A DNA stretch of 64,000 nt from Somniosus microcephalus. Taxonomy: Eukaryota. The stretch lies in contig CM126202.1 of assembly GCA_052327205.1 (NCBI GenBank), positions 376,464,001 through 376,528,000 of the forward strand, given 5' to 3'. How positions within the stretch are numbered: the first letter of the stretch is position 1; every line of letters starts with the position of its first letter. This document shows, piece after piece, positions 11,020-55,004 of the stretch. A model generated the notes under the pieces. That model did no database searches and was not told the origin of the DNA. It saw nothing but the letters and a program-made list of their open reading frames with translations. Both the position numbers and the translations under genes were made by a program.

Positions 11020-14000
11020 TGTGATAAATCCATGTAGGGAAACAAGGAACTCGAAGAGGCGAGATATTAGAATTAGTCCGTGTACTTTATTAAACAGCTG
11101 CGTAACAAACATACAGGCCTGCATCCTCTCATTCCACCTCCGCTGACCTTAACCAGTAGCAGCACTAGCTACAGCACCACCTGGTGGATAACCTTAATCA
11201 TAACATCCCAGATTACTATATTCCTCCCCCCTTAGGATTTCAGTATGAATTTCTTAACAAACAACCATTCCTAAGGGTCACATAAGAAGTCTCCATTCAC
11301 TATGTTCAATACTTGATGAATCTAACAGGTCAGTACTAATCTCTCTGGTGGCTTGCGAGGCCTTTGTGAACGTCTAACAGTAAAGTCCCTGCTTGTTTGT
11401 GGTGAAGCCACCAGCTGCTCCTGAACAGTGCACAGAGTATCTGACTCGGCAACGATGGTTCCCTCTTGACGAATGGGTTCCTGTGGAATTGTCTCTGTCC
11501 ATGGTGGTGGCACCACAGATGCACTTGGATAACTGGGGGCAAACCTGTCCTCAGCCATTGCATCTGGAACCTCAATTTCAATTTCCTCTTGTCTGGTAAG
11601 TATCTGATCTACATGTCTGCGTACTACCCTACCATCTCCCAACATGATCTTGTATGATACTGGACCTGTCATTGAGTCTATGAAGCCAGGAATCCACTTT
11701 GGTCCATAAATGAAATTCCTGGTAAGGACCGCATCTCCTTCTCCAAAACTTCGGCTCTTTGTTCTTTTGTCATGGTTCTCTTTTTGTTTGTTTTGTCTGT
11801 TTTCCATTTTCCTTTTTAGGCCTGGGTGGACAAGGTCAAGAGTGGAGTGTAGTCTATGATCTAATAACATCTCAGCAGGAGAGACTCCTGTGGTGGATTG
11901 AGGTGTTATTCTGTAGCTGAACAGAACCCGTGACACTTTGGCTGCTAAACTCCCTTCTGCACTTTTTATTCATCATCTCTTTAAATGTTTGTACGGCTCT
12001 CTCCGCAAGTCCATTTGAGGACGGATGATATGGAGCCGAGGCCACCTGCACTATGCCATTGTTTCTCATGAACTCTTTTGTCTCTGTACTCACAAAACAA
12101 GTGGCATTGTCACTTACCACGATCTCCGGTAGCCCTTGATTACTGAAGCTCTGACGCAGGCAGTCTATAGTAGTAGTGGAGGAAGCAGAATTAACAGGAT
12201 AAACATCCATCCATTTGGAATGTGCATCAGTGATTATGAGGAACATCTTCCCCATGAATAGACCCGTATAATCTAAGTGCAATCTTCTCCATGGTTTATC
12301 CGGCCACTCCCAGGGGTGGAGAGGAGCCGCTGCTGGTGCCTTCCTGTGTACCTGACAAGTGCTGCATGTCTTGACTAGATTTTCTATCTCCTCATCTAGC
12401 TTTGGCCACCACAAGTAACTCCTAGCCAAAGCTTTCATACGCAACACCCCAGGATGACACTGATGTAGTTGTTGTAGGATAGACTGTGGTGCTGGCTGTG
12501 GAATAATCACTCGTGCTCCCCACAGCGCGCAACCATCCTGCACACTCAGCTCTGTTTTCCTGACACTGTAGGGTGTGAAGTCAGTCCCTTCCGGATGCTG
12601 TGGCCATCCCCTCACCACATATTCTCGAACTCTAGACGGTACTGGATCTTTACCTGTCCATGTTCTTACTTGCTCTGCAGTCACAAGTGCTGTGTCAGTG
12701 TCCTCCAACATCAAAACTCTGTCCTCTGGAGCTGCACGGATAGGTGTGCCTGGCAGTGGAAGACGGCTCAAGGCATTTGCGTTCCCATGGTCCTTGCCCG
12801 CCTTGTAGACAATGACATACTCATATGCCCTCAATGTCACTGCCCACCTCTGGATCCGGGGTGACACCATCTGTGGAACTGCTTTCATTTCATTGAAAAG
12901 AGAGAGAAGAGGTTTATGATTGGTGCATATGGTGAACTTCCTGCCATATATATACTTGTGTAACCTCTGTAACCCAAACATTACTGCTAACCCCTCTTTG
13001 TCTAACTGGGAATAGTTTTTTTCTGCTGGTGTTAGGGTTCAGGACATAAACCCTATTGGTCTTTCTGTTCCACCTTTCATGCAATGTGAAAGAACTGCCC
13101 CCATCCCGTAAGGTGAAGCATCACAAGAGAGAATGATGTCTTCCTCTTCATTGTAGTGAACCAGCACATCCGATGACAGCATCAGTTTCTTGGACTGTTC
13201 AAATGAAACCCTCTGCTCCTCTCCCCACTGCCACTGTGTCTCCTTGTGCAGTAGTTTGTGAAGAGATGCTAACACTGTTGACAGGTTTGGTAAAAACCTG
13301 TTACAATAGTTCAGCAGTCCCAGTTAAGCTTTTAACTCAGCCACATTGGTAGGAGCAGGGGCGTCCTGCAGTGCTTGTACCTTCTCCTTGATTGGATGGA
13401 GCCTGGTGGCATCCACTCTGTGTCCCAGGAACACTGCCTCATTCCCAAGAAAGTGCACTTACTCCTCTTGAGCCGGAACCCTGCCCTCTCCAATCTCTGT
13501 AGTACCTCTCTCAGAGTGCTCAGATGCTCCTGGTTGGTTCTTCCCGTCACCAGAATGTCATCCAGATAGATGGAAACATGTGGAATCCCTTGCAGTACAC
13601 CTTCGATTGTCCTCTGGAAGATAGCTGGACTAGATGAGACACCAAACGGTAAGCGGTTATATGTAAACAAGCCCTTGTGTGTATTTATGGTAACATACTT
13701 CTTTGATTCATCATCCAGTGTAATCTGCAAGTATGCATGACTCATATCCAACTTTGTGAATTTCTTTCCTCCAGCCAGGTTTGCAAAGAGATCCTGTGTT
13801 TTGGAAATAGGATACTGCTCTAGTTTGGACACCCGATTGACTGTCAATTTATAATCTACACAGAGTCTTCCTGAATTGTCCGGTTTTAAAACAGGTACTA
13901 TGGGAGCTGCCCATTCTGAACATTTCACTGGCTCCAGTATGTTCTCTCTCAATAGATGGTCAAGCTCACCCTCTACCTTTGGTTTCATGGCCTAAGGCAC

Positions 14001-15658
14001 AGGTCGTTGTTTAAAAAACCTTGGCGGTGCCTCCTTTTCTACATAAATCTTAGCTGGGGGGCCATTAAATGTGCCAAGTTCCTCCTTGAACACATTCTCA
14101 TGTTCACTCAACACTTCTTGCAAAGTCAACTGTTTGCCCTCATCTATTTGATTTACTGCTCCCCAGTCTAATTTAAGTTCTTTTATCCAGCCCCGACCTA
14201 ACAGGTTTGGTCCGGTACCCGATACTGTAACTACAGGTAGCTGTTCCACTGTGTCCCTGTGTTGCACAGTTACATTAGCTGCACGTAATGTCACTACTCG
14301 TTCAGCTGTATATGTTTTAAGATGCAGAGAGCAAGACATTAACTCTGGAACTTTTGCACGGTTCCACAATTTTGAGTATTCTGCCCTGTTCATTATGGTT
14401 ACACCGCACCCTGTATCAACTTCAAAGTTGACCTCAGAGTCATTTACTGTCAGTTGCAAGGTGATAGGAGCCAATTTTGGAATGTTCTCTAACATGCTAT
14501 ACATTATGAACATGTCCTCTTCTTCCTCAGCTTCCCCGCTGATGTGGTGTGTGCCATGTTTTTTCACTTCTCTTCCTTGGTTTTGCTTTCCTCCCCCTTT
14601 TGGTTTGGATTCCTCCACAGGTGATTTTGCCCTGCATGCTCGTTTTATGTGTCCTTGTTTCCCACACTTGTGGCACTTTTCCTCCAGAAACCGGCATTCA
14701 CTTGCCAGGTGATCGTCCTTGCATCTATAACATGCCTTCACATGCTCACGTTGTGGTTTCTGATGCATGTTTAACTTGTGCACAATAACCTGACCTGCAA
14801 CTTGCTTAGCATTAGCCCTGTCTGAACGCTGTATTTCTTTTACATCTCGGTTCGCTGTCTCTATGGCTTGAGCAAGTTCCAATGCTTTTTCATAAGTAAG
14901 TCCAGTCTCGGAAAATAATCTACGCTGCATTCGGTCATCCATTATTCTGCAAACTAGCCTATCTCTCAGCATTTCCTTCAGGTTGTTCCCATAATTGCAA
15001 TCTTGTGCTAATTTACGCAACACCGCTACATAGTCCATTACACTCTCCTCCTCTTTTCTGTTCCTTGAATTAAACTTGAACCGCTGTACAATCTCACTAG
15101 GCTTAGGGTTAAAATGTTCTTTTAGCAAGGCCACTAATTCAACAATTGATTTGTCTCCAGGCTTTTCAGGACTGAGCAGATTCTTCATCAAACTGTAGGT
15201 TTGGCTTCCCACTGAACTAAGCAGAATGGCTTTCCTTTTTCTGGCATCATTTATTTCATTTGCTTCGAAGAAATAACCCAACACTTCACAGTATTCCTCC
15301 CAGGTTTGTGCTTGAATATCAAAAGCAGAGACCGTACCTATCGTGGCAGCCATGCTCTCGTCCAATTGGTAGCTAACTTTGGCTCGTGAGTTTGTTTTTT
15401 TAAAAGTCCCGGCAGACTTCTCTTCTTTATTCAGTGCCCTTTTACCTCATCGCCAAATGTGATAAATCCATGTAGGGAAACAAGGAACTCGAAGAGGCGA
15501 GATATTAGAATTAGTCCGTGTACTTTTTTAAACAACTGCGTAACAAACATACAGGTCTGCATCCTCTCATTCCACCTCCGCTGACATTAACCAGTAGCAT
15601 CACTAGCTACAGCACCACCTGGTGGATAACCTTAATCATAACATCCCAGATTACTATA
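11020..15658 (-). mobile_element. Gypsy LTR retrotransposon A (Mag/K02A2.6-like), full length, decayed
   Basis: 201-bp LTRs at 11020-11220 and 15458-15658 differ at about 5 positions. 5-bp TSD GGATG. PBS TGGCGATGAGG (15445-15455, tRNA-Ser(GCU)-like). PPT at 11221-11236. Confidence 0.95.
11322..15353 (-). pseudogene. gag-pol of Gypsy A (stops and frameshifts)
   Basis: Two zinc knuckles, protease VDTGC, RT YLDD, RNaseH CDASPYG, integrase HHCC and DDE (HLDY, SDNA, GLAER), split across at least 5 ORFs. Confidence 0.92.
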
Positions 15659-26169: not shown

Positions 26170-27092
26170 AAAGGTAGAAATAGCAGAGACATTGGTCACA
26201 ATCTTTCAATCCTCATTGGATACAGGTGTAGTGCCGGAGGACTGGAGGGTTGCTAATGCTATACCACTATTCAAGAAAAGGGAGAGGGATAAACCAGGAA
26301 ACTACAGTCCAGTCAGCCTAACATTGGTGGTGGGGAAGTTATTTTAAACCATTATCAGGGAAAAAATACACTTTCATTTGGAAAGGCATGGGTTAATCAC
26401 AGAGAGCCAGCTTCGATTTGTTAAAGGTAAATCATGTTTGACTAACTTGATTGAATTCTTTGATGAGGTAACACTGAAGGTTGATCAAGATAATGCAGTA
26501 AATGTAGTATATCTGGACTTTCAGAAGGCATTCAACAAACTGTCACACAGGAGGCTTATTAAGAAGATGGAAGCCCAAGGAATTGAGGTGAAAGTGGCGG
26601 TATTGATACAAAATTGCCTCAGTGACAGGAAGCAATGGGTGGTGGTGGATGGTAGTTTTTCAGACTGGGAGGTGGTTTGCAGTGATGTTCCCCAAGAGTC
26701 AGTTTTGGGTCCATTGCTCTTTGCAATTTTTCTAAACCACCTAGACTCAGGTGTAGGGAGCAGCATTATAAAGTTTGTGTTAAGTCTGTGTGTTCTAGTT
26801 GTAATTACTAACACAGACTACAAGATTAAAGTTCAACAGGTCTTTACTGGTTGGAGGTCAGGACTATACTAAATACAATATTACTACACAGTGCTTATAT
26901 ACCGGTGGTCACCACCGGTATTATGTATACAGCAGCCAGAGAAAGTAATACATCTCTTAAGGTGGAACAGGCTTAAGTTCTCTTAAGGTGGAACAGGTTA
27001 CATACACCACAATCCTCCCTTTTTAGCTTAACAGTCATATCCCCATTTAACATAACATAATAATAACATATATAACTTCAGGTATAAACAGT

Positions 27093-30000
27093 TCAAAGGT
27101 TCAGTCTCTCAGGAGGCCTTCTGATTCGGTTTGGATAACGCCTTTCAGTGGTCTCTGATTCCTGTTGCTGAGGTGACTCCTCTAGTTGGTCTCCCATGCA
27201 TTGGGTGTTATCATCATCAGGTACATTCCCTGCCGAGGTAGATGCTTCAGGTTCATTAACGTCTTCCACAGTTGTCTCTGTCGCAACCATGGGTTCGACC
27301 CTTGCTCTCGATTCTACCAGTTGATCTGCATGACGCCTTATCACATTGTTACCAATATCTACTGTGTACATCAGAGGTCCTTGTCTGGCCCGAATTGTTC
27401 CGGACTGCCATTTTTCGTTTCCATAGCCCCTTGCCAACACTGGTTGTCCTACGTCGAAACTTCGAGTGGTCTTGTTATTAATATGCCGAAACTGTTTGTT
27501 TTCCACTTCCCTCCGCACATTTGGTTTTAACAAGTCCAACCTGGACCGCAACCTCCTGTTGTAAATCATCATGGCAGGACTTTGGTTAGACACTGCATGA
27601 GCGGCGTTTCGATATGCCATTAGGAAATTGTCCACCTTGTGCTGTAGCGGAATCTGATCATCGTTCATGGCCTTTATTGCCTTTTTGAATGTTTGGACAA
27701 ATCTCTCGGCCAACCCGTTTGTCGCCGGATGATATGGGGCAGAGGTATAATGTTTCACCCCATTCTTCTTTAAGAACTTTTGGAATTCTTCCGACATGAA
27801 CTGTGGTCCATTGTCCGAACAGATCTGTTCTGGCAATCCGTTCCTTGCGAATACTGTTCTTAACACCGCAATTGTCTTTTCTGAAGTAGTGGTATTCATC
27901 TTGATCACTTCTGGCCATTTGGAATGTGCGTCCACCGCAATTAGGAACATGGAGTCCATGAATGGACCAGCAAAGTCAATATGTACGCGTTGCCATGGGG
28001 CTGAAGGCCATTCCCATGGGTGTAGTGGTGCGATCGGAGGTGCATTTTGCACTTTTTGGCACCCAGCGCAGCTTTTCGTCAACTCCTCTATCTGTTGGTC
28101 AATACCCGGCCACCATACATAAGCCCTAGCAAGACTTTTCATCTTAACTCCCCCCAGATGACCTTCATGCAGTTCTTTTAGAACTCTTTCCCTTAACTTG
28201 GGAGGAATAATCACTCTTGTCCCGTACATCAAAGTACCATGGCAGACGGACAGCTGGTCTCGCCTTGCCGAGAATGCCCGTAACAGAGGATCACCACATG
28301 TTGGCCATCATTTCACTGTCACCTCGTAGACTCTGGACAGTGTCGGGTCGTTCCTGGTTTCTCTTTCAATACTTGCATTGGTGACTGGTAAACACTTGAT
28401 GATGGTCGAATGAAATAACTCAACAGGGTCAACTTTCGTCGTTTCTTCTCCTTCAGGTAGTGGCAGGCGCGACAGCCCATCAGCATTGCCATGCTGCTTC
28501 GTACCTTTGAATTCTATTTGATATTGATGTGCCCCTAGGAAAAGGGACCATCTCTGGAGACGCTGTGCTGTCATCACTGAAACACCCTTCTTAGGGTTAA
28601 AAATGGATACCAATGGCTGATGGTCTGTCAGAAGTGTGAATTTTTGGCCCTGCAGGTAATGATTAAACTTCTTCACTCCCCATACAAGGCTGAGAGCCTC
28701 CCTATCGATCTGCGCATAGTTGCGCTCAGCAGAGGTCAATGATCTGGATGCAAACGCGACTGGCCTTTCCATGCCATTTGGCAACTTGTGGAGAGTACTG
28801 CCCCAATACCATATGGAGAAGCATCACAAGCCAACCGAATAGGCAGTGTCGGGTTGAAGTGAGCCAACACTTCCTCTGAGGTGATCAATTCTTTGCTTTT
28901 GCGAAATGCCTTCTTACAGTTTTCGCTCCATTCCCATGGTACCCCCTTCTGTAAAAGAGCGTTCAGCGGGTGCAGTACCGTGGATAGATTTGGTAGAAAT
29001 TTATGGTAATAGTTAATCAATCCTAGAAATGACCTCAACTGAGAGACATTATCCGGAGTGGGAGCCTTTACAACTGCCTCTATCTTGTCAGGAGACTTAT
29101 GAAGCCCCTCCCAGTCAATGACATGACCACAGTACAAGATCCACTTCTGGAAGAACTCACATTTCTGCTGATTAACTCTAAGTCCATACTCTTTCAGTCT
29201 GTTGAGCACCAGTTCCAAGTTTGCGAGGTGTTCTTCATCACCATCACCTGTAATCAGAATATCGTCCAGGTAACATTGTGTGCATGGAATTCCCTGTAAT
29301 ACCTGCTCCATGGCCCTCTGTCAAATTGCTGGAGCCGATGCCACTCCAAAAACCAGCCTATTGTACCAGTACAAACCTTGATGCGTGTTGATCGTGAGGT
29401 ATTGGCGTGACTCTTCTTCAACCTCCATCTGCAAGTACGCCTGCGCCATGTCTATCTTGGTGAAGTGTTTCCCGCCAGACAACGAAGCAAAAACATCCTC
29501 AATCCGCGGAAGCGGATACTGCACCGTGTTGTAAGGGTTTCGCAAAATTCCCCTGAAAACAAGAGAAACATTGGTCCACATCGTGGATGAAGATTTATGT
29601 GTTTTTGAATTGCCTCTGGGTCAGATCAATGTTTTGAAGCATGTTCAGAGCCATGAAAGACTGCTGGACTAGACTACAACAGAGTCAAGGAAATTTGGGG
29701 AAGTATTCACACACATTGAGAAGGAACATCTTTTAAGGCTTGTGCTTTGGAGCCCGGTCAAACACAGAGGTTTACAGCTTGTAATGTGTTTGTGTGAAAG
29801 ACCTGTCAATCAAACCAGGGAGGTCAGGAGTTGCCTACCTGACCCGAGGTTGATTATGGCTGGCTATGATTCAACAGCCAATCACAGTCCTTTTTTGTGT
29901 ACTGGTCAGACGGAGCGGCACCAGAATGAAAGACCTGTCAATCAAACCAGGGAGGTCAGGAGTTATCTACTTGACCCGAGGTCGATTATGGCTGGCTATG

Positions 30001-32042
30001 TTTAAACAAGCAATTCAGCAGCCAATCACAGTCCTTTTGTTTGTGTACTGGAACTTTAGGCGGGAATTTTTCCAGACAGAGCGGCAGCAGCAACAAGTAT
30101 AAAAGATAGCTACTGAGAAGCTATCAGGCCTCTTCTCTTTTTACTTCGCTGGATCAGGTGAGCAGAGTGTTTTGACTCCTAAACAAGACAACCTAGCAAG
30201 GACTTTGGGGTGGTGATTTAAGGGAATTGCTAAGATTGTTTAAATAACATTGTAGCCATTGTATCCCTCGCTTTTGCCGTGTGTACCCCCTTGATATATA
30301 CTTTTGTTGCATTTACTATGTTCGTGTGGTATAGTTTATATTTGATTATGGTTCTTTAGTTTAATAAATTTTGACTTTGCTCATATCCAAACAAATTGTC
30401 CGCTTTAACATCATTAATTGTAAGTCCCCCAGTCAGAACTGAAAGGTGGGGTAGCGATTCGGAACCACTGTTAAATTGGTTTACAGTGCAGCAGGCAAAA
30501 GGGCTGCTGGCCAGATATGTTACCATAAACCAGGTAATAGATGCCCCCCCCTACAGTGTGAAGCACCGGATTAACGGTGATTTTGAAATCTCCACAGATG
30601 CGAACCTTCCCTGGTTCTCCTGGCTTGTTGCTCGAAGGATGTTTCATAACGGGAACAATGGGCGTAGCCCACTCACTCCAATCTACCTTAGACAGTACAC
30701 CTGAACGTTCTAGCGCTTCCAGTTCTGCTTCTACAGTAGGTCGTATTGCATAGGGTACCGGTCTGGCTTTAAAAAATTTTGGGTGTGCTTGTTCATCAAT
30801 CTTGATGTTTGCCGTAATTCCTCTCAGTGTTCCCAGTCCCTGCTGGAACACCTCTTTAGCGTCATCCAATATTTTGGACAATCGTTTAGGTTTGACATCT
30901 GTTTCCCCGGAATCTACCGTTAGTGCCTTCAAGGAGTGCCAGTCCATATTCATTTTCCTAATCCACTCCCGTCCCAGTAGTGGTGGACCTCCTTCAGGTA
31001 GCACATATAAGTCCATTACTTGGCTTTCTTCGCCCTTGTGGACCACTTTTACCTCTATCTTTCCGATGGGGTACACACTTTGCCCCGTGTATGTTTTCAA
31101 TATAATCTCCGTATCCCGTAGGGGAATATGTTGGAATAACCTTTTGTAATCTTTCTTATTCATGACCGTCAATGCCGATCCAGTGTCCAATTCCATCTTT
31201 ACTTGGACTCCTGCTATCTGAAGGGTGACCCAAATTGTCTGGAGATCTGCATCCTTACCAACGTTGTGTACTCTTAAGCTACCCAGTTCATTACTGCTAG
31301 CGTCTGAATCTGGCTTCTGTTCGGTCGAACTGTTCTTTGTCACCTTGTGTACCTTTATGTATTTTCCTTGCGGTGACTTTTTGTTGCTGGTCTTCTTTCC
31401 TGACCGGCATACTTTAGCTATGTGGCCAAGCCTGCCACACGTTCTGCACTCTTGGTTTTTAAACCAACACTGGTTCTGATCGTGCGTTGTCTTTCCACAA
31501 CGATAACATTTTACAGTACTCAAACCCAATTTATTTGTACTGAGTTCCGGTGACCTAAGCTGCATTACTGCCGTGCCTCTCGCTGCGGCTTCGTGCGCTG
31601 CTGCCATAGTGACTGCTTTCTCAAGCGTCAGCTCATTCTCCTCGAGCAGTCGCTTTTGTGTATCTTCTTTTAATAGTCTCGTTCCAAACTGACAGTACTT
31701 TGCTAGCTTACGCAATTCCATTAAATATTCAGCATTGCTTTCATCCTTCAGCTGCCTTCTGCTGTAAAATTTAAATCGTTCCGCTAGCATCAGCGGCGTG
31801 GGGTTTAGATGATTTTTCAGGACAGTAACAATCTCCTCGAACGTCTTATCCGCCGGTTCATCTGGTGATAAAAGGTGTTTCAATTGCCCGTATGTCTTCG
31901 CACCCATTAAGTTTAATAATGTTAGTGCTTTCTCTTCATCTGGGATTTTATTTGCTTTACAATAATTTTGTATGCGTTCTACATACATGGCCCAATCTTC
32001 GATGTCGCTATCAAAGGTATTAATGTTCCCATGTTTAGGCAT
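27093..32042 (-). pseudogene. gag-pol of Gypsy B
   Basis: Gag knuckles, LDTGS, YLDD, CDASPYG and integrase DDE ending RRPPERLNL. It carries stops, a frameshift, a 12-aa gag deletion and a solo-LTR insertion in RT. Confidence 0.92.
29530..30555 (+). mobile_element. Solo LTR (1026 bp) inserted in the RT of Gypsy B
   Basis: TGTAAG...CCCTACA termini and TSD GTGT. It has a 132-bp-period internal duplication, CCAAT boxes, TATAAAA near 30098 and AATAAA at 30363. Confidence 0.9.
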
Positions 32043-32757
32043 CGTTGCAATTTAATTTATTTTTATTTTTATCCAAGATGGCGGCTTCCCGCTCTTGTCT
32101 TCATCCTCCGCCTACAAAATGGCGGTTTTCCCGCGCTTGGCGGTCTTCACCCATCCCCCGACGCTGTCTCCGCTTCACCGCGGCTCTCGCGCCTTCAGTT
32201 GCCCCAGACGCTGCGCCTTTTTAGCCCGAATGCGGCCCGGCCCTTATCACCAGCCGCGATCGATGTCCCCGCGCTCCGCCTTTCGGCCCGAATGCGGCCC
32301 GGCCCTTATCTCCGGTCGCGATCGATCTCACCGCCCTTATTCCTCCGTCTTCCCTCCCCGTCTGTACAGCCAACGCGGCCGACTTTCTGGTCGCGTCGCT
32401 GCCCGGCTTACCCACCACCGAGGTAGAATGAAGATAGCTGACAGCCGCTGATGGAGGCTTCGAGTTCAGGATGTCTTCTGCACTCTGGTTTCTCGATGTC
32501 TGCCGCGCGACGTGTCTTCCAGCAGGGTGATGAGGGTGGAAGCCTCTCTTCGACGTCCGTTCTGTGGACGAAGCCATCGTGGATATAAACTGCCGCAGGG
32601 TAAGAATCGGACTCGTCGCCACTGTTTAGTCTGTGTGTTCTAGTTGTAATTACTAACACAGACTACAAGATTAAAGTTCAACAGGTCTTTACTGGTTGGA
32701 GGTCAGGACTATACTAAATACAATATTACTACACAGTGCTTATATACCTGTGGTCAC

Positions 32758-35700
32758 TGTTAAGTCTGTGAATTATTTAGTTAATTAAGACACAGACTAA
32801 TGAGTAACAATAAAAACAGGTCTTTACTGGTTGGAGGTAGGGACTATACTGAATACAAGATTACTGCACAGTGCTTATATACCGGTGTGTTCACCCCCGG
32901 TATTACGTCTACAGCAGCCTGAGAAAGTAGTACATCTCTTAAGGTGGAACAGGCTTAAGCTCTCTTAAGGTGGAACAGGTTACATACACAACACTCCTCC
33001 CTTCTTAGCTTTATAGTCATCCCCCCATTTAACATAACGTAATAACATATATACATATATAACTTCATGTTTAACGTAACATATCACAGATTCAGTCTCT
33101 GCGGAAAACAGCTCACAGATTCAATGTCTGTGGTGTAGTCGGTTCACGTTACTCATTCAATAGTCCTTTCATGGATTTAACAGCTTGAACTTCCGAACTG
33201 ATTTGGCTCCGTTCGGAGGGACCACGTGTGTGATCTGCTAGAGGTGATAATGGTTCAGATGGGTCATCTTCTGTTTTTACTTTTCCTTTTCTGCTTCTTG
33301 GAGACTCTCTGGGCTCCATTGTCAGCTGCCACAGCTGCCAGCTGCATGCGCAGTTCCTCCTTCTCTTCCTCCTGTTTCCGTCGTAGAGCCAGCTTCTCCC
33401 GATGTTCCGTAGACTTTTGGTGCTCCTCCATGATTTCTGCACTTTGGGAGTCGAAGTTACAAGCTGGGCAGGACAGGACATCGTAATATTCGGTGTCGTC
33501 CACCAGGTCATGGTAATATTCGGTGTCGTCCTGAGCTAGACCAGTGAGAGGGTCGTCTATTTCCTCCATACCCAGCTGGACGTTAGCCAGCTCTTGTTCC
33601 AAATCCAGACATCTTTCCTGAAGAGACTTCTTCATGTGTACCTCTGCATCCAGCTTTTTCTGGGCTTTCAGCAAGTCGTTTACTAGTGACCTCATTTGTG
33701 ATTTTAATACTTCAACTTCCTTTGGAGATTGATTGATCGGACTATGCAATCCCTCTACCGGAGCAGCCGTTTCAGCGGTCTGTTGTTCTACATTGACGTG
33801 AGTCAGCGTACTTTTGGCATCCAATGGCTGCTCTGTTGCAGTCGTTTCAGTCTGTGTCGTCACATCAGCCATCTCAATGACTTTTGAGAGCTCCAAACCC
33901 TTTTCCTTTGAAGATCGCAGCTCGTGTTCAAGTTTTTCCCATTTCAGAGTCTTGTCCCTCAGCATATGAAGGAGTTGGCTGACCGTTAACTCTTCTGACA
34001 CCAGATTATGGCACGTACCTTCAGAACCTGAATCAGCTTTGATTCGTTCGGCCTCCTCGCGCAGATGGTTGGTGTGCCCCTGCTCCATTTTCTCCATCAG
34101 TTGCTTCTGTTGCCTTTCCAGATTCTCCCACTCTGTAACAAAGAACTTTTTTATTTCATTCATCTCTTGCTCAAAACGGCGAATCATTTGTTCTAATTGC
34201 TGTTGTAGTTTGAAATGGAGTTGAGTTCGAGCCCAGTGTCCCTCAAAAATGTGCATATCAGTAGACTTGACAGACTCGGAATTCTCTGTTAAACTATGTT
34301 GTTGTTGCTCAGTGGAATTCTGTGCTGAAACTTTGTCTTTTGCACATGGGTTGGTCTTACCATCATCAGTTCTAGAGTCTGGGCTGATTATCTGCACCGA
34401 GTTCTCACTCTTTATGGCTTTTAGCGAATGCCAGTCCATATTTATGTTTCTAAACCACTCCCGGCCTAGTAGTGGTGGACCTCCCTCCGGTAGCACATAT
34501 AAGTCCATTATTTGACTTCCTTCGCCCTTGTTGGCCACTGCAACCTTTATTGTCCCGATGGGGTACACTCTCTGCCCCGTGTAGGTTGTCAATATAATCT
34601 CCGTATCCTGTAGGGGAATATGTTGGAATAACCTTCTGTAATCTTTCTTATTCATGACCGACAATGCCGATCCAGTGTCCAATTCCATTTTTACTTGGAC
34701 TCCTTCTATCTGAAGAGTAACCCAAATTGTCTGGAGGTCTGCACCCTTACCAACGTTGAGTACCCTTAAGCTAGCCAGTTCAATACTGCTTAAGCCAGCC
34801 AGTTCATTACTGCTAGCATCTGAATCAGACTCCTGTTCGGCCACCTTGTGTACCTTTGCGTATTTCCCTTGCGGTGACTTCTTGTTGCTGGTCTTCTTCC
34901 CTGACCTGCATACTCTAGCTATATGTCCAAGCCTACCACATGTTCTGCATTCTTGGTTTTTAAACCAACACTGGTTCTGATCATGCGTTGTCTTTCCACA
35001 ACGATAACATTTAACAGAACTCACACCCAATTTGTGTGCACTGAGCTCCGGTGACCGTAGCTGCATTACTGCCGTGCCTCTCGCTGCGGCTTCGTGTGCT
35101 GCTGCCATAGTGACCGCCTTCTCAAGCGTCAGCTCATTCTCCTCGAGCAGTCGCTTTTGTGTATCTTGTTTAAATAAACCACACACAAATTTGTCTCGTA
35201 GTGCATCTGTCAGTCCCGTTCCAAACTGACAATATTTCGCTAATTTACGCAATTCCAGCAAATATTCAGCATTGCTTTCATTCTGTAGTTGCCTTCTGTC
35301 ATAAAATTTAAATCGTTCCGCTAGCATCAGCGGCGTGGGGTTTAGATGATCTTTCAGGACAGTAACAATCTCATCGAACGTCTTATCCGCCGGTTCATCT
35401 GGTGATAACAGGTGTTTCAATTGCCCGTATGTCTTCGCACCCATTAAATTTAATAATGTTAGTGCTTTATCTTGCTCACGAATTTTATTGGCCTTACAAT
35501 AATTTTTTACTCGTTCTACATATATGGCCCAATCCTCGATGTCACTATCAAAGGTGCCAATATTCCCGTGTTTAGGCATTGTTACAATTTTGTTGGAATT
35601 TTATGTTACACAAGATGGCGGCTTCCCGCTCTTTGTCGTCGTCCTCCGCTCCCAAGATGGCGGTTTTCCCGCGTTTGGCGGTCTTCACCCGTCCCCCGAC

Positions 35701-36305
35701 GCTGTCTGTAAGCCCGAGTGCGGCCCTTATCTTTTATGCGATCGCTGATCGCGAAGCGGCTCCCGACCGAAGCGGCTCTTGGCCCTTATCTGGAGTGCGA
35801 TCGCTGGCTTGAAACGCCACCCGCTCGAAGCGGCTCTCGCGCCCTTATCGCAGATGCGATCGATTTGAAAGCGGCCCGGCCCTTATCTGCCGATCGCTAT
35901 CGCCCTGTACCTCTGTCTTCCCCAGCCCTGTCTTCTACTCCGGTTCACAAGCTGATGGAGGCTTCAGGGTCCTAATGCCTGTCGCTTCCAGTGGGGTGGT
36001 GAGGTTTGAAACCTCTCTTCAACCGCCGTGGAATAACTGCCGCAGGGTAAGAACCTGACTCGTCGCCAGTGTTAAGTCTGTGAATTATTTAGTTAATTAA
36101 GACACAGACTAATGAGTAACAATAAAAACAGGTCTTTACTGGTTGGAGGTAGGGACTATACTGAATACAAGATTACTGCACAGTGCTTATATACCGGTGT
36201 GTTCACCCCCGGTATTACGTCTACAGCAGCCTGAGAAAGTAGTACATCTCTTAAGGTGGAACAGGCTTAAGCTCTCTTAAGGTGGAACAGGTTACATACA
36301 CAACA
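32758..36305 (-). mobile_element. Non-autonomous Gypsy-derived element C carrying a chimeric ORF
   Basis: Identical 236-bp LTRs (32758-32993, 36070-36305), TSD GTCAC, PBS TGGCGACGAG (36059-36068), PPT at 32994-33006. No RT, RNaseH or integrase core. Confidence 0.95.
33264..35579 (-). CDS. 771-aa Gag-protease fused to STK10/SLK-like, optineurin-like and DNAJC21-like segments
   Basis: Uninterrupted ORF. Residues 1-388 are collinear with Gypsy B Gag-PR. Residues 446-515 resemble the STK10/SLK PKK coiled coil, 529-673 the OPTN coiled coil, and 694-771 the DNAJC21 zinc finger plus its basic patch. Recognised from memory. Confidence 0.85.
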
Positions 36306-38420
36306 GTCACCACCGGTATTACATATACAGCAGCCAGAGAAAGTAGTACATCTCTTAAGGTGGAACAGGCTTAAGTTCTCTTAAGGTGGAACAGGTTACA
36401 TACACCACAGTTTGTAGATGAGACAAAACTTGGCAAAGTAGTAGATAGTGATGAGGATCGTTATAGGCTTTAGGATAACAGACAGGATGGTGAAATGGGC
36501 AGAAGTATGGCAGATGGAGTTCAATGCAGAGAAGTGTGAAGTGATGCACTTTGGGAGGACTAATATGGAAAGACAGTAAGACAGTATACTATAAATGGCA
36601 CAATTTTGAAAAGTGTAGATGAGCAGAGAGACCTTGGTGTCCTGATACACAAATCCGTAAAGGTGGCAGGGCAAGTTGATAAGGTGGTTAAAAAAGCATA
36701 TGGGTTACTTGGCTTTATAAATAGAGGAATAGAACTTTATAGATCACTGGTTAGGCCTCGGCTGGAGTATTGTGAAAACTCTGTGCACAACAGTCAGGAA
36801 AGATGTAAAGGCCTTAGAAAGGGTACAGAGCAGATTTATCAGGATGTTACCAGGGATGAGGGACTTCAGTTATGAAGAGAGGTTGAAAAAGTTAGGACTC
36901 TTCTCCTTGGAACAGAAAAGGTTAAGAGGTGACCTCATAGATGTTACCAAGATGATGAGAGGTTTTATAGAGTAAATAGAGAAAAGCTATTCCCTCTGGC
37001 GAGTGGTCCAATAACCAGAATTCATAGATTCAAAATCATTGGCAAAAGATCTAGAGGGGAGATGAGGAGAATTTTTTTCACTCCCAGTTGTCGGGATCTG
37101 GAACACTCTACCTGAAATGGTGGTGGAAGCTGATTCCATAAATAATTTTAAAAGGGAGCTGGACAGGTACTTGAGGATGAGGAACTTCCAGGGTTATGGA
37201 CAAAAAGCGGGAATAAGCACAACTGCTCTTTCAAAGAGCCAGCACAGGCACGATGGGTCGAATGGCCTCCTTCTGTGCTGTAAGTTTCTATGATTCTATA
37301 TGGACTGTTCAAATCAGCGAGAGTTGGTCTGGTACATTGGAAAAGATTAGTTCGACCAGTTAACTTCTGTAGTTGTTAAGGTCATAAGAAAAAAACAACT
37401 ATGTATACAGGAAAGTTATTTACAAAATTATAGTTTAGCATAAAGCAAATTTGTTTGGCTTTTACAAGGTCTGTTGTTAGTGTTGTTCTACCACGTTTCA
37501 AGGTTAGAACCCTGTGGAGGTACAGGCTAGATCCAATAGCTAAAGGCAAGTTTTCTGCTTGTTATTCTGGGCATGCTAGCAAAACTTACCTGGAAACCAC
37601 AGCAAATGAAATAGTCTCAAAGTTGTAGGGGAGTAAGACTCATTATAAGAGCAGTTTAAAATATGGAAGGCAAAATATCTAGACCAAAAAAGGCAGCGAG
37701 GCACAAAAATATAACAGCTGCTGGCCCAGGGAAACTACAATTTCCTTGGAAATGCAAAGGGTTAAATAACAAACTGCAAATGCACTGAAATAAATTGATG
37801 CAAATAAACAAGACAAATTTATGGTATATAAATAGTAATTCAAGTCTAAAGATTGATTGGGGTTTGTTGCTGTTGAGAGATCAGTAATGAAGCATAATGC
37901 ACATCCTGAGATGTCAACCACGACAGACCAGACATTCAATTTTCAAACGTCCTTAAAGAGAAACAAGGCCTGATTTTGCTCTCTAGCTGCAATCTTGGCC
38001 AAGTTCAGTAGAAGTGCACTCTGCTGGGACCAAGGCCACACCAACCGAACTTCCTCTTGGCCTGAATTAAAGTAATGCAGCTGCATGTGGGGATGCTCTA
38101 TTGGGTACAGGCAAGAAAGGAAGACAAATTGAGGCTGCTTTTTGTTAATTCAAAATGGGATGCAGTCGCGTATCTTGAAGGAGAGGGACGATTTTCCCCC
38201 TCTGGTAGGGAAACAGTGGTGAGATGCTCAGGAGAGATGCAGGCACATTTCCCCAGCAGTTGTCAAGGGAGCTTGTGGTATTTTTCCCTCGTATGTTCCA
38301 AATAAGCCGTATCACAAAAGGGGATGGGAAAAGTTGGAACAATACTGAACACTGCCTCTATTGCGAAGTGTAAGAGGCAGAGAGCATTCAGCATCAAGTC
38401 CTGAAGCAGCAAAACTATAT

Positions 38421-48890: not shown

Positions 48891-51800
48891 TGTGGTGATT
48901 ATTCTTTATGTTTAGTAAGAAGTATTGTGATTGGTTGTTTGTTTCCTGCCTTGGGATATATGTTGTAATCTCATTGGTAGTTGATGTCATGTGATTTGTG
49001 GTGGCCATCTTAAATTCAGTTCTTTCCAGCCTTTTGTTGGGACTGGGTGTTGAAGATGTGCTACAGGATTTTTAAGTTAATAAAGCCTAGATTAGAAAGG
49101 CAAATCTATTCTTTATTTCAATTTATTAACTTTATGTCAGAATGGAGCGATATCTTCAACCAGAACGATTCAATGCTGACCCTAATTCTGCAGGAGTGGA
49201 TGATAAATGGAAACACTAGTATTGTACATTTAAAAACTTTTTGGGCGTGTTGGATCAAGAGTCTCTAAATAAGCTGAATATGCTGATCAACTACATTGCT
49301 CCGGATGTGTATAAGTATATTTTGGACTGTAAAACTTACGAAGTGGCTATTTCTACATTGGAAAAGATTTTTGTTAAACCAAAGAATGAGGTATTTGCAC
49401 GTCACCTTCTATCTGCCCGTAGGCAGCAGGTGGGAGAATCTTTGGATACTTATTTACAAGCACTTCGGTGCCTTAGTGTTAACTGTAATTATAAGGCCAT
49501 GACGGCTGAAGAATATAAGGAAGAATCGGCACGGGATGCTTTTATTAATGGATTACTGTCTAGATCAATTAGTCAGCGGTTGTTAGAAAATAAGACTTTG
49601 GATCTTAAGAGTGCTTTTGAGCAAGCTTCTACATTGGATGTGGCTCAGAGAAGTTCGGATTCTTATGCTCTTTTTAATCGGCCTGTGACTGTGGTTTCGG
49701 CAGTTCCGGATGAAAAGGAATTATGTGGACTTAATAGGAGTGGTTTACTAGATTCTGAAACAGTTTCTACTTCAGCGGCTGTTGCCTCTAGGATTCAGAA
49801 GTGTTATTTTTGTGGGAACGTCCGGCACCCTCGTCTGAAGTGTCCTGCTCGGGAGGCTGTGTGTAGTAAATGCGGCAAGAGAGGTCATTACGCACGTGTG
49901 TGTAAATCATCAGGTTCAATTACCTCCTCTGTGACTATTCAGCCTTTAGATAGGGCGTTTATTGCATCAATTTCTGCTGCATTTGCTCATGGCCTAAACA
50001 AAGCTATAGTTACGGCCCAAGTTAATGGGTTGGAAGTGAAGGCCCTTATAGATACGGGCAGTACCGAGAGTTTTATAAGTCTTCAGTTTGCAAAGGAGAA
50101 GCATTTGAAAATTTTGCCTGTTTCCTATCAGGTGTGTATGGCTCAGACGACTCTCACTTCACAAGTAGCTGGTTGTTGCCTTGTGAAATTGATTCTTCTA
50201 GGTAATACGTATACTGATATATGCCTATCTGTTTTGCCTAATCTCTGTGCGGATATTTTGATTGGTCATGATGTGCTTCAGTTACACGAGTCTCTCAATC
50301 TTTCATTTGGAGGGACTAAGCCACCTTTATCTATTTGTGGATTAACCTCTTTATCCATTTCTCCATTATCACTTTTTTCCAATTTGATGCCAGATTGTAA
50401 GCCAATTGCTACCAAGTCAAGAAGGTATAGCAGTCAGGATAGAGAATTTATTAATTCTGAAGTTCAACGTCTCTTATTGGAAGGAATCATTGAACCTAGT
50501 TGTTCGCCTTGGCGGGCACAGGTAGTTGTCACGACTAACGAGAGACATAAGAAACGAATGGTGATAGACTATTCCCAAACTATTAATAGGTATACTCAAT
50601 TAGATGCGTACCCTTTGCCTAAGATTGATGAGCTTATCAATAAAGTATCTCAGTATAAGGTTTTTAGCACTATTGACCTAAAGAGTGCTTATCATCAGAT
50701 TCCTATTGTTAAGAAGGATCAACCATATACGGCCTTTGAGGCTGGTGGAAAGCTGTATCAGTTTTGCCGAATACCATTTGGTGTTACTAATGGTGTTGCT
50801 TGTTTTCAATGGGCAATGGATGCTTTTATAAGTGATAACTCTCTCTCTGACACCTTTTCATACTTAGATGACATCACGGTGTGTGGCAAATCAAGGGTGG
50901 AGCATGATTCTAATTTAGAAAGATTCCTTGAAGCTGCTGAAAAAGTTAGTTTAACTTTCAATAAAGAGAAGTGTACCTTTTCGACCACTGAGGTAAATCT
51001 ACTGGGGTATATTATCTCGGGAAACAAGATTAAACCAGACCCAGAATGTCTGCGACCATTGATTGATTTACCCTGTCCTACTAATTCTAAGGCTTTGCAA
51101 CGAGTTGTTGGACTGTTTTCTTACTATTCTAATTGGATTGCAATTTTTTCACAGAAGATCTGGCCTCTTATTCGGGTTACGACATATCCTCTATCATGGG
51201 AGGCCAGGACGTGTTTTGATAATTTTAAAAAGGATATCCTTGGAGCAGTTGTGCATTCTATTGATGAGCAGGTTCCTTTTGTGATTGAGACGGACGCTTC
51301 TGATTTTGCAATTGGGGCTACTCTGAACCAAAATGGAAGACCTGTGGCTTTTTTCTCACGTACCTTGAACAATAGTGAAAAAAGGCATTCTTCAATAGAG
51401 AAAGAGGCGTATGCAATAGTAGAAGCACTGCGTAAATGGAGACATAATTTATCTGGGTGACATTTTACGTTGGTAACTGATCAAAAGTCTGTGTCCTTTA
51501 TGTTTGATGTCAAACATTTTGGAAAGATTAAGAATGATAAAATAATGAGGTGGAGGATTGAGTTGGCATGTTACCATTTTGATATAGTTTATCGTCCGGG
51601 GAAGGATAATGTTGCTGCTGATGCGCTGTCGAGGGCTTATTGTTCTGTGATTCACGGAGATACGCTTATTAATCTTCACAATGCCTTATGCCATCCTGGG
51701 GTTACGAGGATGATACACTTCGTACGCAGTAAGAATTTGCCCTTTTCAGTTGAAGACGTCAAGCGGATGACTTCATCATGTTCTATCTGTGCTCAGTGTA

Positions 51801-53297
51801 AACCGAATTTCTTTAAGCCTCAATGAGCTCATCTTATAAAGGCTGCTTCTCCTTTTGAACATTTGAGCGTCGATTTTAAGGGGTCTCTTCCTTCAACTAC
51901 TCAAAACCGATATATATTTACTGTTGTGGATGAGTTTTCAAGGTTCCCTTTTGCTTTTCCTTGCGCAGATGTATCAGCTGCTACAGTTATCAAATGTCTG
52001 ACTCAACTTTTTGTCATCTTTGGGATGCCTGCGTATATCCATTCGGATCAGGGAAGTTCTTTTATGTCTTCCCAGTTGAAGGAATACCTTCAGAGTTGGG
52101 GAATTTCTACTAGCAGAACTACCCCGTATAATCCCCAGGGTAATGGACAGTGCGAACGATACAATGGGGTGATCTGGAAGGCAGTTATGTTGGCTTTGAC
52201 ATCCCGGAACCTTAAGAATACACAGTGGGAAATGGTACTGCCTGATGCCCTGCATTCCATTAGATCATTGCTTTCAACGGCTACTAATGTGACCCCCCAT
52301 GAAAGGCTCTTTAACTATCCGCAGAGATCTACTACGGGATATTCGGTACCTTCATGGCTTACTATGCAGGGACCTGTGCTGCTTCGACGCCATGTTAGAT
52401 TGTCAAAATATGATCCATTAGTGGAGGAGGTGGAGCTGTTGGAGGCAAATTCCCAATATGCTCATATTCGATTCCAAGATGGGAAAGAAAGTACCGTTTC
52501 AATTAAAGACTTGGCTCCTTGTGGTGGCCAGCCCTCTTCTGAGGATATTAACAATAGTCATGATTCAGGTAATGTGGATGCTGTTACAGATACTACGAAT
52601 ATTTCCAATCCGACTGCAGATAATTATACTTCTATTAGTCAGCCCTCGATAGATGTTCATGACCGTCCCAGTTTACCTCCTGATGGGATTTCTAATCCGG
52701 AAACCGTTGAAAATCGGGATATGGATAGCCTTCCGGCAGAAGATACTTCTGTGTCTCCTGGTGTGGGAGGGCAAGGAATTTCACCAAGGTTAAGAAGGTC
52801 GACACGAACAAGATATCCGGTCGACCGATTGAAAATGGACTTTTAAATTGATAGTAATGTTTTAAAATTGTTGAAATATTATATTATATTGTTTTAGTTG
52901 AGAGATATTTAATACTTATGTGCAATGTTACTATTTGTTGTTGCTCACTTAGTATTGTGTCATGTTGAATAGTTTTATTTTGTCTGTGCATAGTTTTAGT
53001 TGTAAATAATTAATTATAAATTGTAAAGGTTATTTAGGTTGGAGTATATTTTAAAAGGAGGGGTGAATGTGGTGATTATTCTTTATGTTTAGTAAGAAGT
53101 ATTGTGATTGGTTGTTTGTTTCCTGCCTTGGGATATATGTTGTAATCTCATTGGTAGTTGATGTCATGTGATTTGTGGTGGCCATCTTAAATTCAGTTCT
53201 TTCCAGCCTTTAGTTGGGACTGAGTGTTGAAGATGTGCTACAGGATTTTTAAGTTAATAAAGCCTGGATTAGAAAGGCAAATCTATTCTTTATTTCA
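48891..53297 (+). mobile_element. Gypsy LTR retrotransposon D, full length, mildly decayed
   Basis: 230-bp LTRs (48891-49120, 53068-53297) with 3 differences. PPT AAAAGGAGGGGTGAA. The TSD is imperfect (CCATT/ATATT) and there is no clear tRNA PBS. Confidence 0.92.
49142..52846 (+). pseudogene. Single-frame gag-pol of Gypsy D with three in-frame stops
   Basis: MERYLQPERF..., zinc knuckles, IDTGS, YLDD, TDASD, HHCC and DDE. Stops at about 49216, 51458 and 51824, all in one frame. Confidence 0.92.
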
Positions 53298-53380
53298 ATA
53301 TTCTAAGCATGAATACATAGTTAAATTATGGCCATATTTCCCTCTATTAGCAAAAAAAAGTTTAATTCACTTAACATCTA

Positions 53381-54779
53381 GGCCTAGAAATTGAGTTGAC
53401 GCCGCGCCAGGGCTTTAGCGCCGGAAATTTAGCGCCGGCGCTAATTCCCTTGCGCGCGCCAAAAATTCAGTAGCGCCGCGCCCAGACGGCTGCCGGCGCT
53501 ACTGGCGGGCGTGAGCGCCTCCCAATGGGCGCTGAGTGCCGTATTGCGGCGCTAATCCGGCGCTGCGGCACCCGATGCGGTGCGGCAGGCTGGGGAAGTG
53601 CAGGCCTCCTCCTTCAGTTAAGGAGGAGCTGCCTGCACCCGCCCGCTGTCCGTTCAAATATTGAAAAAATGAGCCCGGCACCACGGACAAGTGCCGGGCT
53701 TGCAGGCCAGACGCATCTGTTCCACGGGGGGGGGGGTGGAGGAGTCCGGGGAGGGAGGTGCGGGCAGGCAGCCGACGGGAAAGCGGCCGGCCGCAGCGCG
53801 ACCTTAATGCGCCGGCGCAAACTCGGGGAAGACTCTGTTGCCAGAGTCTTAGGCCTAGAAATTGAGTGCCCTTAGCGCCGATTTTGCGGCGCTAGAGGGC
53901 CTAGCGCTGCATTTGGCGCCGGCGCCGAAATTGCCTGGGGCCCTTACGCCGCGGTAGACCGGTAGCGCTGCGCCGGCACCGATGACGTCATCGGTGTGCG
54001 CAGCGTCCCGGTTGCCATGACGACGGGCCCCAGCGCCGAAATTCAGTTGCGGCCGCCTCGCCCGTGGCAGCCGCAACTAAGACTCTGGCAACAGAGTCTT
54101 CCCCGAGTTTGCGCCGGCGCATTAAGGTCGCGCTGCGGCCGGCCGCTTTCCTGTCGGCTGCCTGCCCGCACCTCCCTCCCCGGACTCCTCCACCCCCCCC
54201 CCCCCGCGGAACAGATGCGTCTGGCCTGCAAGCCCGGCACTTGTCCGAGGTGCCGGGCTCATTTTTTCAATATTTGAACGGACAGCGGGCGGGTGCAGGC
54301 AGCTCCTCCTTAACTGAAGGAGGAGGCCTGCACTTCCCCAGCCTGCCGCACCGCATCGGGTGCCGCAGCGCCGGATTAGCGCCGCAATACGGCACTCAGC
54401 GCCCATTGGGAGGCGCTCACGCCCGCCAGTAGCGCCGGCAGCCGTCTGGGCGCGGCGCTACTGAATTTTTGGCGCGCGCAAGGGAATTAGCGCCGGCGCT
54501 AAATTTCCGGCGCTAAAGCCCTGGCGCGGCGTCAACTCAATTTCTAGGCCTTAGTTGCGGCTGCCACGGGCGAGGCGGCCGCAACTGAATTTCGGCGCTG
54601 GGGCCCGTCGTCATGGCAACCGGGACGCTGCGCACACCGATGACGTCATCGGTGCCGGCGCAGCGCTACCGGTCTACCGCGGCGTAAGGGCCCCAGGCAA
54701 TTTCGGCGCCGGCGCCAAATGCAGCGCTAGGCCCTCTAGCGCCGCAAAATCGGCGCTAAGGGCACTCAATTTCTAGGCC
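53381..54779 (+). mobile_element. Harbinger-type MITE, outer copy (53381-53851 plus 54554-54779)
   Basis: Perfect TIR GGCCTAGAAATTGAGT and TSD CTA. Confidence 0.93.
53852..54550 (-). mobile_element. Same MITE, inner inverted copy (699 bp)
   Basis: Perfect TIR and TSD TTA (53849-53851 / 54551-54553). It contains the intact version of the site it interrupts. Confidence 0.93.
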
Positions 54780-55004
54780 CTAGAATTTAACAAAGCCAAA
54801 TCAAAATGGCAGGTACCCATGACTTTGCGCAGATCATTTTCTGCAATACAATTTTGGTGGTGGGAATGGAAGCAAATGGCCTATCATGACACGTCAATAT
54901 TAATGCTTATTTCATATGTATCAAGCAGCTAAATTGCTACATAGCCAGCATAAATGGTCAATATTTCATTCATCCAGTTGTCAAAATGGGAAAACTTTTG
55001 AAAA

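Follow-up and report, generated by a model that had tools for sequence, protein, structure and literature searches.

A zinc-finger segment captured from spliced DNAJC21 mRNA in an abundant non-autonomous LTR element family of Somniosus microcephalus

Capture of mRNA pieces by LTR elements, even of pieces from several genes, is already known (PMC5131818). In the LTR-mediated retrocopies of Tan et al. (2016, PMC5131818), as far as the part of that paper drawn on here goes, intronless host pieces from several parental genes replace internal ORFs, junctions carry microsimilarity, and the products are transcribed in sense and re-mobilised as non-autonomous elements, all of which is shared by the shark family described below. 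Unlike it, the retrocopies in that part of the paper are single- or few-copy and most older ones bear disabling mutations, whereas the shark family, with ~10,000 matches, falls into many subfamilies, retains an intact gag-protease fusion and shows apparent constraint on a captured fold; the supplements of PMC5131818 list further retrocopies. Maize Bs1, as summarised in the same portion of PMC5131818, is also an LTR element, its chimeric ORF being assembled from exonic pieces that come from three unlinked genes. It occurs in one to five copies with the same switch points, whereas the shark family adds, swaps and drops pieces. Drosophila telomeric elements (PMC13534243, from the section used here) likewise hold host fragments in successful elements, with conflict proposed; they differ in being non-LTR elements with fragments of piRNA-pathway genes that act via small RNA and not via an in-frame domain. 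DNAJC21/Jjj1, described in the consulted part of PMC6710477 as a J-protein of 60S maturation, is the donor of the finger, helix and KKQKRK cluster found in the element.

In the literature searched, with few subscription journals in scope, no description of the shark family was found, nor any paper joining optineurin, DNAJC21 and a retrotransposon. Nothing in those searches matched the scale, the stepwise shuffling with its surviving intermediates or the constraint on a captured fold, which are new to that extent. Host fragments captured by LTR elements tend to be decaying and present in few copies; here the fragment lies at ~10,000 places, in frame and with ligands kept, and intermediates of each capture step persist in the genome as a stepwise record of what would be template-switch exon shuffling. 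The family opens the testable question of whether non-autonomous elements gain from captured proteins. In such genomes its copies will also mislead gene annotation and the mapping of reads to DNAJC21, OPTN and STK10. No chimeric relative is seen among the best 120 of 343 protein matches or 64 further ones (9 scanned with Pfam, 6 by name look-up). Protein sets frequently omit elements of this kind, and a missing chimeric relative therefore does not show absence in other sharks. P0242 was considered as a relative and rejected as a composition match to a bacterial-type response-regulator coil.

The window, meaning the whole 64,000-nt stretch of contig CM126202.1 that was analysed, holds on its minus strand what is by structure a young non-autonomous Ty3/Gypsy LTR element. 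Its features, in the direction of reading, are as follows.

36306-36310, minus strand: one copy of the 5-bp target-site duplication (same 5-mer at 32753-32757)
36070-36305, minus strand: 5' LTR, 236 bp, TG...CA, 99.2% identical to the 3' LTR
34400-35579, minus strand: gag, capsid-like with CCHC knuckles, followed by a DTG aspartic protease; start codon ATG at 35579, lower limit approximate
34042-34399, minus strand: captured STK10 pieces including the PKK coiled coil (PF12474, E 1e-11); boundaries approximate, named via a sister copy
33559-34041, minus strand: captured OPTN coiled-coil piece with an internal deletion; five host exons without introns, 77-94%, at C17:85879057-85890195
33552-33569, minus strand: OPTN-to-STK10 switch with 11 nt of microsimilarity (one mismatch), followed by a short remnant of STK10
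33282-33551, minus strand: captured DNAJC21 segment, from protein and host-exon matches; left edge probable
33474-33531, minus strand: 30-nt in-frame tandem duplication (DDTEYY twice), from TRF and codon shuffles
33402-33470, minus strand: C2H2 zinc finger, CxxC-x12-H-x5-H, with a host splice junction inside (33433/33432)
33282-33299, minus strand: basic KKQKRK from the next DNAJC21 exon; 28/28 nt identical at 33308-33281
33264-33281, minus strand: SKNRR-stop, DNAJC21-to-STK10 junction, 11-nt microsimilarity, out of the STK10 frame
32994-33263, minus strand: 3' untranslated remnants of STK10 and of an integrase-like tail, plus the polypurine tract
32758-32993, minus strand: 3' LTR, from the LTR comparison
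32753-32757, minus strand: other copy of the 5-bp target-site duplication

The finger peptide is the C-terminal end of a 771-aa ORF (ATG at 35579) in which gag-protease, with CCHC knuckles and a DTG aspartic protease, is joined in frame to spliced pieces of STK10 (with the PKK domain), OPTN and DNAJC21. A Pfam scan of the ORF finds no DnaJ or ZHD domain and only one finger; without J domain, ZHD or second finger, this is a fragment of DNAJC21 and not a gene copy. The finger also differs from that of DNAJC21/Jjj1 in its reversed surface charge. RT and integrase are missing from the domain order of the element, which has the paired 236-bp LTRs, polypurine tract and 5-bp target-site duplication; such 5-bp duplications likewise flank L079, L082, L083, L084 and L086. 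The gag-protease DNA is 85% identical to that of a neighbouring gag-pol element. Since dispersed young copies have neither RT nor IN, we infer that a helper mobilises the element in trans.

The element inserted into an LTR of a related gag-pol element (~26778-36409), and the halves of the split LTR, 32620-32757 and 36306-36409, match the LTR at 26778-27011 at 97-98%. The coding region of the neighbouring gag-pol element is split into several frames. Two more LTR elements, at 11020-15658 and 48891-53306, have LTRs 97-98% identical and broken gag-pol frames. Three overlapping inverted repeats of 127-357 nt (98-99%) at 53380-54793 would be a local inversion or an assembly artefact.

An initial annotation of this DNA had read the end of the ORF as a captured DNAJC21-like zinc finger with a basic tail. 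The peptide it quoted is present as given on the minus strand, with its stop codon at 33264-33266, and all ligands of the CxxC-x12-H-x5-H finger (33470-33402) are retained. Its DNAJC21 origin is confirmed through sister elements with a less altered finger, found by a PF12171 search of the 6.45-Gb genome (29 of 30 loci fetched): one sister finger has shark DNAJC21 as best match (E 2e-17), and the DNA matches exons in the element's own genome. All named proteins among the best 120 of 414 sister-finger matches are DNAJC21 or bear its domains. More generally, the nearest named homologues of the captured pieces are shark proteins, and the names OPTN and STK10 come from a protein search (best 120 of 343 matches). 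Protein and Pfam searches had been proposed as a check, and these succeed with the sisters only. The window tail alone matches nothing among PDB sequences (best E 0.96), none of 140 candidates from the protein collection gained a score, and in a further protein search 0 of 64 matches have their best stretch on the window finger. Against zf-C2H2_jaz (PF12171) the window finger scores 16.3 bits, below the gathering score of 22.6, while keeping the CxxC-x12-H-x5-H spacing; sisters score 35.7 and 38.2. The window finger is too diverged for a blind search to name it, and its identity rests on sister copies and host exons. In a pairwise comparison the window tail is identical to shark DNAJC21 at 23 of 42 residues (E 7e-12).

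The host exons indicate how the piece was acquired. A pattern for a splice acceptor within the finger has a single genome match, the host exon at C1:4792921, and this splice position would agree with human splice variant c.983+1, named in the part of PMC6710477 used here (mapping by inference). Sister L088 agrees with the host exon at 124 of 126 nt and passes directly into the following one, the 2.27-kb host intron being absent. Host-like sisters are 95-98% identical to the host DNAJC21 exon, and the window copy matches host exons at 83 of 101 nt (82%) and then 28 of 28 nt. The host splice acceptor, at position 33432, is missing from the element. OPTN exons are likewise joined without introns, six in sisters and five in the window copy. 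Since introns are absent and host exons joined, capture was from spliced mRNA, and at the sequence level the segment is a piece of spliced DNAJC21 mRNA comprising the first zinc finger, the following helix and the basic exon. The segment had been placed at 33264..33530; judging from copies with STK10 only, the piece probably starts near 33551, and SKNRR-stop is junction sequence.

The first four host DNAJC21 exons lie at C1:2.65-2.68 Mb. No host exon was located for the left end of the segment, and directly upstream of the exon that was located the assembly has an N gap, at C1:4793861-4794360; searches of C1:2.43-2.68 Mb, of 4.76-4.83 Mb and of the genome did not find the middle exons. The host gene is split on the minus strand of C1, where the first exons stand at 2.67 Mb and the last ones at 4.79 Mb. 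This puts them in the wrong order, and the region (C1:2.65-2.68 and 4.77-4.79 Mb) has N gaps. A scaffolding error is likely. A second donor candidate, C17:58.36 Mb, found via PF21884, was dropped, as 120 kb there hold no finger exon; we take this locus to be DNAJC2.

The order of captures can be read from the junctions. STK10 sequence that runs on without the DNAJC21 insert has 624 genome matches, and the two that were read are gag-protease-STK10 elements. The existence of STK10-only copies implies that DNAJC21 was inserted into an earlier-captured STK10 piece. At the right DNAJC21 junction the 11-nt microsimilarity occurs only across a host exon-exon junction, and the OPTN/STK10 junction has 11 nt with one mismatch; both fit the template-switch model as presented in the part of PMC5131818 consulted. 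The frame shifts at the right junction. Host-like sisters reach a basic integrase-like tail by three routes; in the window type and its relatives the DNAJC21 frame is read through and stops after the basic cluster. It follows from this frame change that KKQKRK is host-derived and SKNRR is not. The tail, earlier suggested to be an NLS, is therefore only half derived from DNAJC21 and is a candidate NLS; KKQKRK fits what we take to be the classical pattern, K-K/R-x-K/R. Sisters such as L087 and L089 have dropped the DNAJC21 tail. This loss, with the 624 matches lacking the insert, indicates that the DNAJC21 piece is not essential.

Pieces have also moved between elements. Subfamilies A and B show no fixed difference in the other 1.2 kb compared (B copies L020-L025, L027, L028 and L030), and from the alignments the finger module appears to have been swapped by recombination. 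The two differ by 14 substitutions and a 33-nt indel, all within 33545-33374, and apart from these resemble each other along 1.4 kb. Other backbones bear the B finger too (L079, L186, L187). For gag, dS is 0.7-0.8 to host-like sisters (L088, L097, L112) and 0.27 to the neighbouring gag-pol element; for OPTN it is ~0.16. These distances suggest that the captured cassette was moved onto another gag backbone.

The duplication ahead of the finger was correctly reported: DDTEYY is encoded twice (33483-33500 and 33513-33530) by identical 18-mers with a frame-preserving spacing of 30 nt. TRF gives period 30 at 33474-33531, and in 2000 codon shuffles of 33264-33530 the longest exact repeat is 13 nt. 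That it arose after capture is borne out by the single unit in Carcharodon DNAJC21 and in many host-like sisters; it is, however, not conserved. Some host-like sisters have it, a distinct 27-nt form of it exists, and type B lacks it. Having been gained and lost in frame, it is dispensable. The duplication creates YxxL-x6-YxxL at 33471-33515, a spacing that we regard as ITAM-like and that is probably due to chance. This motif is kept in types A, D and L097 and is absent from B and L182-L185.

The family is abundant. The finger pattern has 10,328 genome matches and its reversed control none; these are pattern matches and not verified full elements. The exact 33-mer of the window has 2,425 matches. 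By eye, the first 100 finger matches comprise 27 of the window type, 38 of type B, 30 of type D and 5 host-like, and the last 98 residues of the window are identical in all 150 scored matches. The element family is transcribed. At 94% likeness, 10,704 of 16.7 million RNA reads match in run X7 and 8,323 of 14.4 million in a second run; these are raw reads from two runs and report the family, not the window locus. Run X7 has a ~10:1 strand bias over the finger, which corresponds to sense transcripts if the library is of the usual stranded type; run X8 has no clear bias. Among the RNA reads, some include 33 nt at the duplication and others lack them.

Constraint on the zinc ligands, at which the initial annotation had hinted, is supported between subfamilies. 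Collection of 123 finger copies, less 8 duplicate fetches, left 115, and variants were counted if present in at least 2 copies. None of the four ligands and 17 of the 19 other positions vary (Fisher P 0.0017), and no ligand change is shared among the 115 copies. About 34 nonsynonymous steps fall elsewhere than on ligands (P 0.0008-0.001; 0.002-0.005 without possible indel codons), against 5 silent steps in the 19 non-ligand codons; per-column counts are rough since copies recombine. Sampling favoured ligands, with 30 loci chosen by Pfam score, 30 by 100% tail identity and 20 by a Cys-fixing pattern. With the Cys codons freed the pattern has 9,661 matches, and among those listed 100 of 100 are Cys-Cys and belong to the same subfamilies; neither finger pattern requires His. 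Within subfamilies the ligand test has no power, as copies are too young and differ by ~1%. Shared length variants before the finger (48, 51, 78 and 81 nt; 111 of 115 copies measured) are all in frame. The 11 host tail codons in 83 in-frame copies have 6 synonymous and 2 nonsynonymous shared changes (P 0.001-0.006), with 4 of the 6 synonymous changes from one lineage and the pattern written after the variants were seen. Thus, among the copies aligned, the four ligands and their spacing persist across subfamilies, as do an open frame and a basic C-terminus, and most other finger residues change. Retention of ligands amid changed intervening residues suggests that the element itself uses the captured piece.

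In the type with the same CPACEKIFQSAKTM as Carcharodon DNAJC21 the finger 23-mer has a net charge of +4, and in the window it has fallen to -4; host-like types range from +3 to +6 and derived types from -4 to 0. With its basic helix turned acidic, RNA binding by the window-type finger is doubtful. The predicted structure is a beta-beta-alpha fold (pLDDT ~90), in a model built with a DNAJC21 alignment and so leaning towards a finger. Foldseek with this model gives matches that all have E above 1, and the top ones include U1 snRNP and spliceosome chains.

Evolutionary rates differ along the ORF. Gag and protease have omega of 0.06-0.30 against host-like sisters, D-type copies and the neighbour, i.e. 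purifying selection; protease against two closer copies has 0.54-0.61, not significant. For OPTN, omega is 0.26-0.49 in comparison with most copies and 0.68-0.79 with type D. For the finger, omega is 1.6-2.3, mostly not significant (P 0.03-0.35 across nine settings, below 0.05 in one), and the pairwise omega test gives P 0.07-1; over 31 codons the window departs from the host exon by 12 nonsynonymous and 2 synonymous changes (P 0.5). These tests do not establish positive selection on the finger, which the ratios at most suggest.

We judge it somewhat probable that the element is copied in trans, that its fusion protein is made, and that element-level selection keeps a folded finger and basic tail, probably for assembly and nuclear entry. 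Capture would have occurred by template switching during reverse transcription. A related gag-pol element would copy the non-autonomous element in trans and the ORF would be translated, with selection acting on the element, not the host, to keep the finger folded. The finger would most likely serve as a folded zinc-finger cap that ends the STK10/OPTN coiled coil. The basic tail, having replaced an integrase-derived basic tail, would most likely act in nuclear import or nucleic-acid binding and help the element's particles. As the finger surface has turned acidic in the window subfamily, protein contact would be likelier than RNA contact, and a ribosome-related role would have been lost. Function of the finger is in each case proposed from sequence. 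Only tentatively can this be extended to a vertebrate Ty3/Gypsy lineage in which RT and integrase were replaced by an evolving cassette of host domains (STK10, OPTN, DNAJC21, other coils) swapped between gags, the finger being an adaptively remodelled binding module with a nuclear-import tail. If true, this would be domestication in reverse, a transposon exapting host domains that are selected across ~10,000 copies.

The captured piece could instead be a passenger under constraint on its fold only, a filler that keeps a long frame and packageable length after loss of RT and integrase, its surface drifting neutrally; we think this rather unlikely, and the same doubt attaches to its corollary that the sole reason for keeping the ligands is the damage an unfolded C-terminus would do to the Gag polyprotein. 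Omega at non-ligand positions is not distinguishable from 1, the duplication is gained and lost, the coil at this place differs between sisters, and the finger-less copies with their 624 matches have spread too, all as expected of a passenger. The synonymous excess in the basic tail is not, nor is a window tail identical to the host over 28 of 28 nt when the preceding exon has 14 changes in 93 nt. Finger-bearing matches also outnumber STK10-only ones, 10,328 to 624, by patterns that differ in strictness.

An arms race, in which finger and OPTN coil are decoys or binding surfaces directed at host restriction or at the helper, would account for charge reversal and module swapping. It could draw on the ~34 amino-acid-changing and 5 silent steps in 19 codons, on net charges of -4 to 0 in derived against +3 to +6 in host-like types, on the 95 derived types among the first 100 matches (by eye), and on the restriction of A-B differences (14 substitutions, 33-nt indel) to 33545-33374 with none fixed in the other 1.2 kb. 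The amino-acid excess is, however, not significant, and the window copy is without the OPTN part, bearing a presumed LIR-like motif, that sisters keep; such a conflict seems improbable. It is very improbable that the captured sequence acts as RNA, through small RNAs against host genes, with divergence as escape from cross-silencing. Fragments of nxf2, piwi and aub in Drosophila telomeric elements are a precedent (PMC13534243, in the part used here) and some RNA reads lie on the other strand, but what is constrained is codons and frame. The host shows no sign of escape: the most frequent copies have diverged from it (82%), whereas host-like sisters retain 95-98% identity to its exon.

Several further features of the family were recorded alongside the preferred reading of an element-selected finger and tail. 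The OPTN stretch deleted from the window copy (window 34005-33999) and present in host-like sisters L097 and L107 bears what we assume to be a LIR-like motif. In the window finger (33447-33458) the core Phe, four residues past the second Cys, is replaced by Ser, with a Phe two residues after that, an arrangement that we take to resemble the 'aromatic swap' of ZFY fingers; in the literature searched, with few subscription journals in scope, no paper on the aromatic swap was found. The type D finger has neither the core nor the shifted Phe. In L169, STK10 pieces are shuffled relative to STK10 protein P0148, residues 375-478 and 616-734 preceding 286-388. Sisters carry other captured coils, myosin-tail-like in L088 (PF01576) and further ones in type D (L188; L141 and L167 at C1:2.428-2.433 Mb), the latter without a PDB match; we read the L088 coil as cingulin-like and the type D coils as EVI5-like and RAI14/ANKRD24-like. 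Near-identical elements may occur under more than one species label. In runs X2-X6, three organism labels contain 0.6-0.7 of the sampled words.
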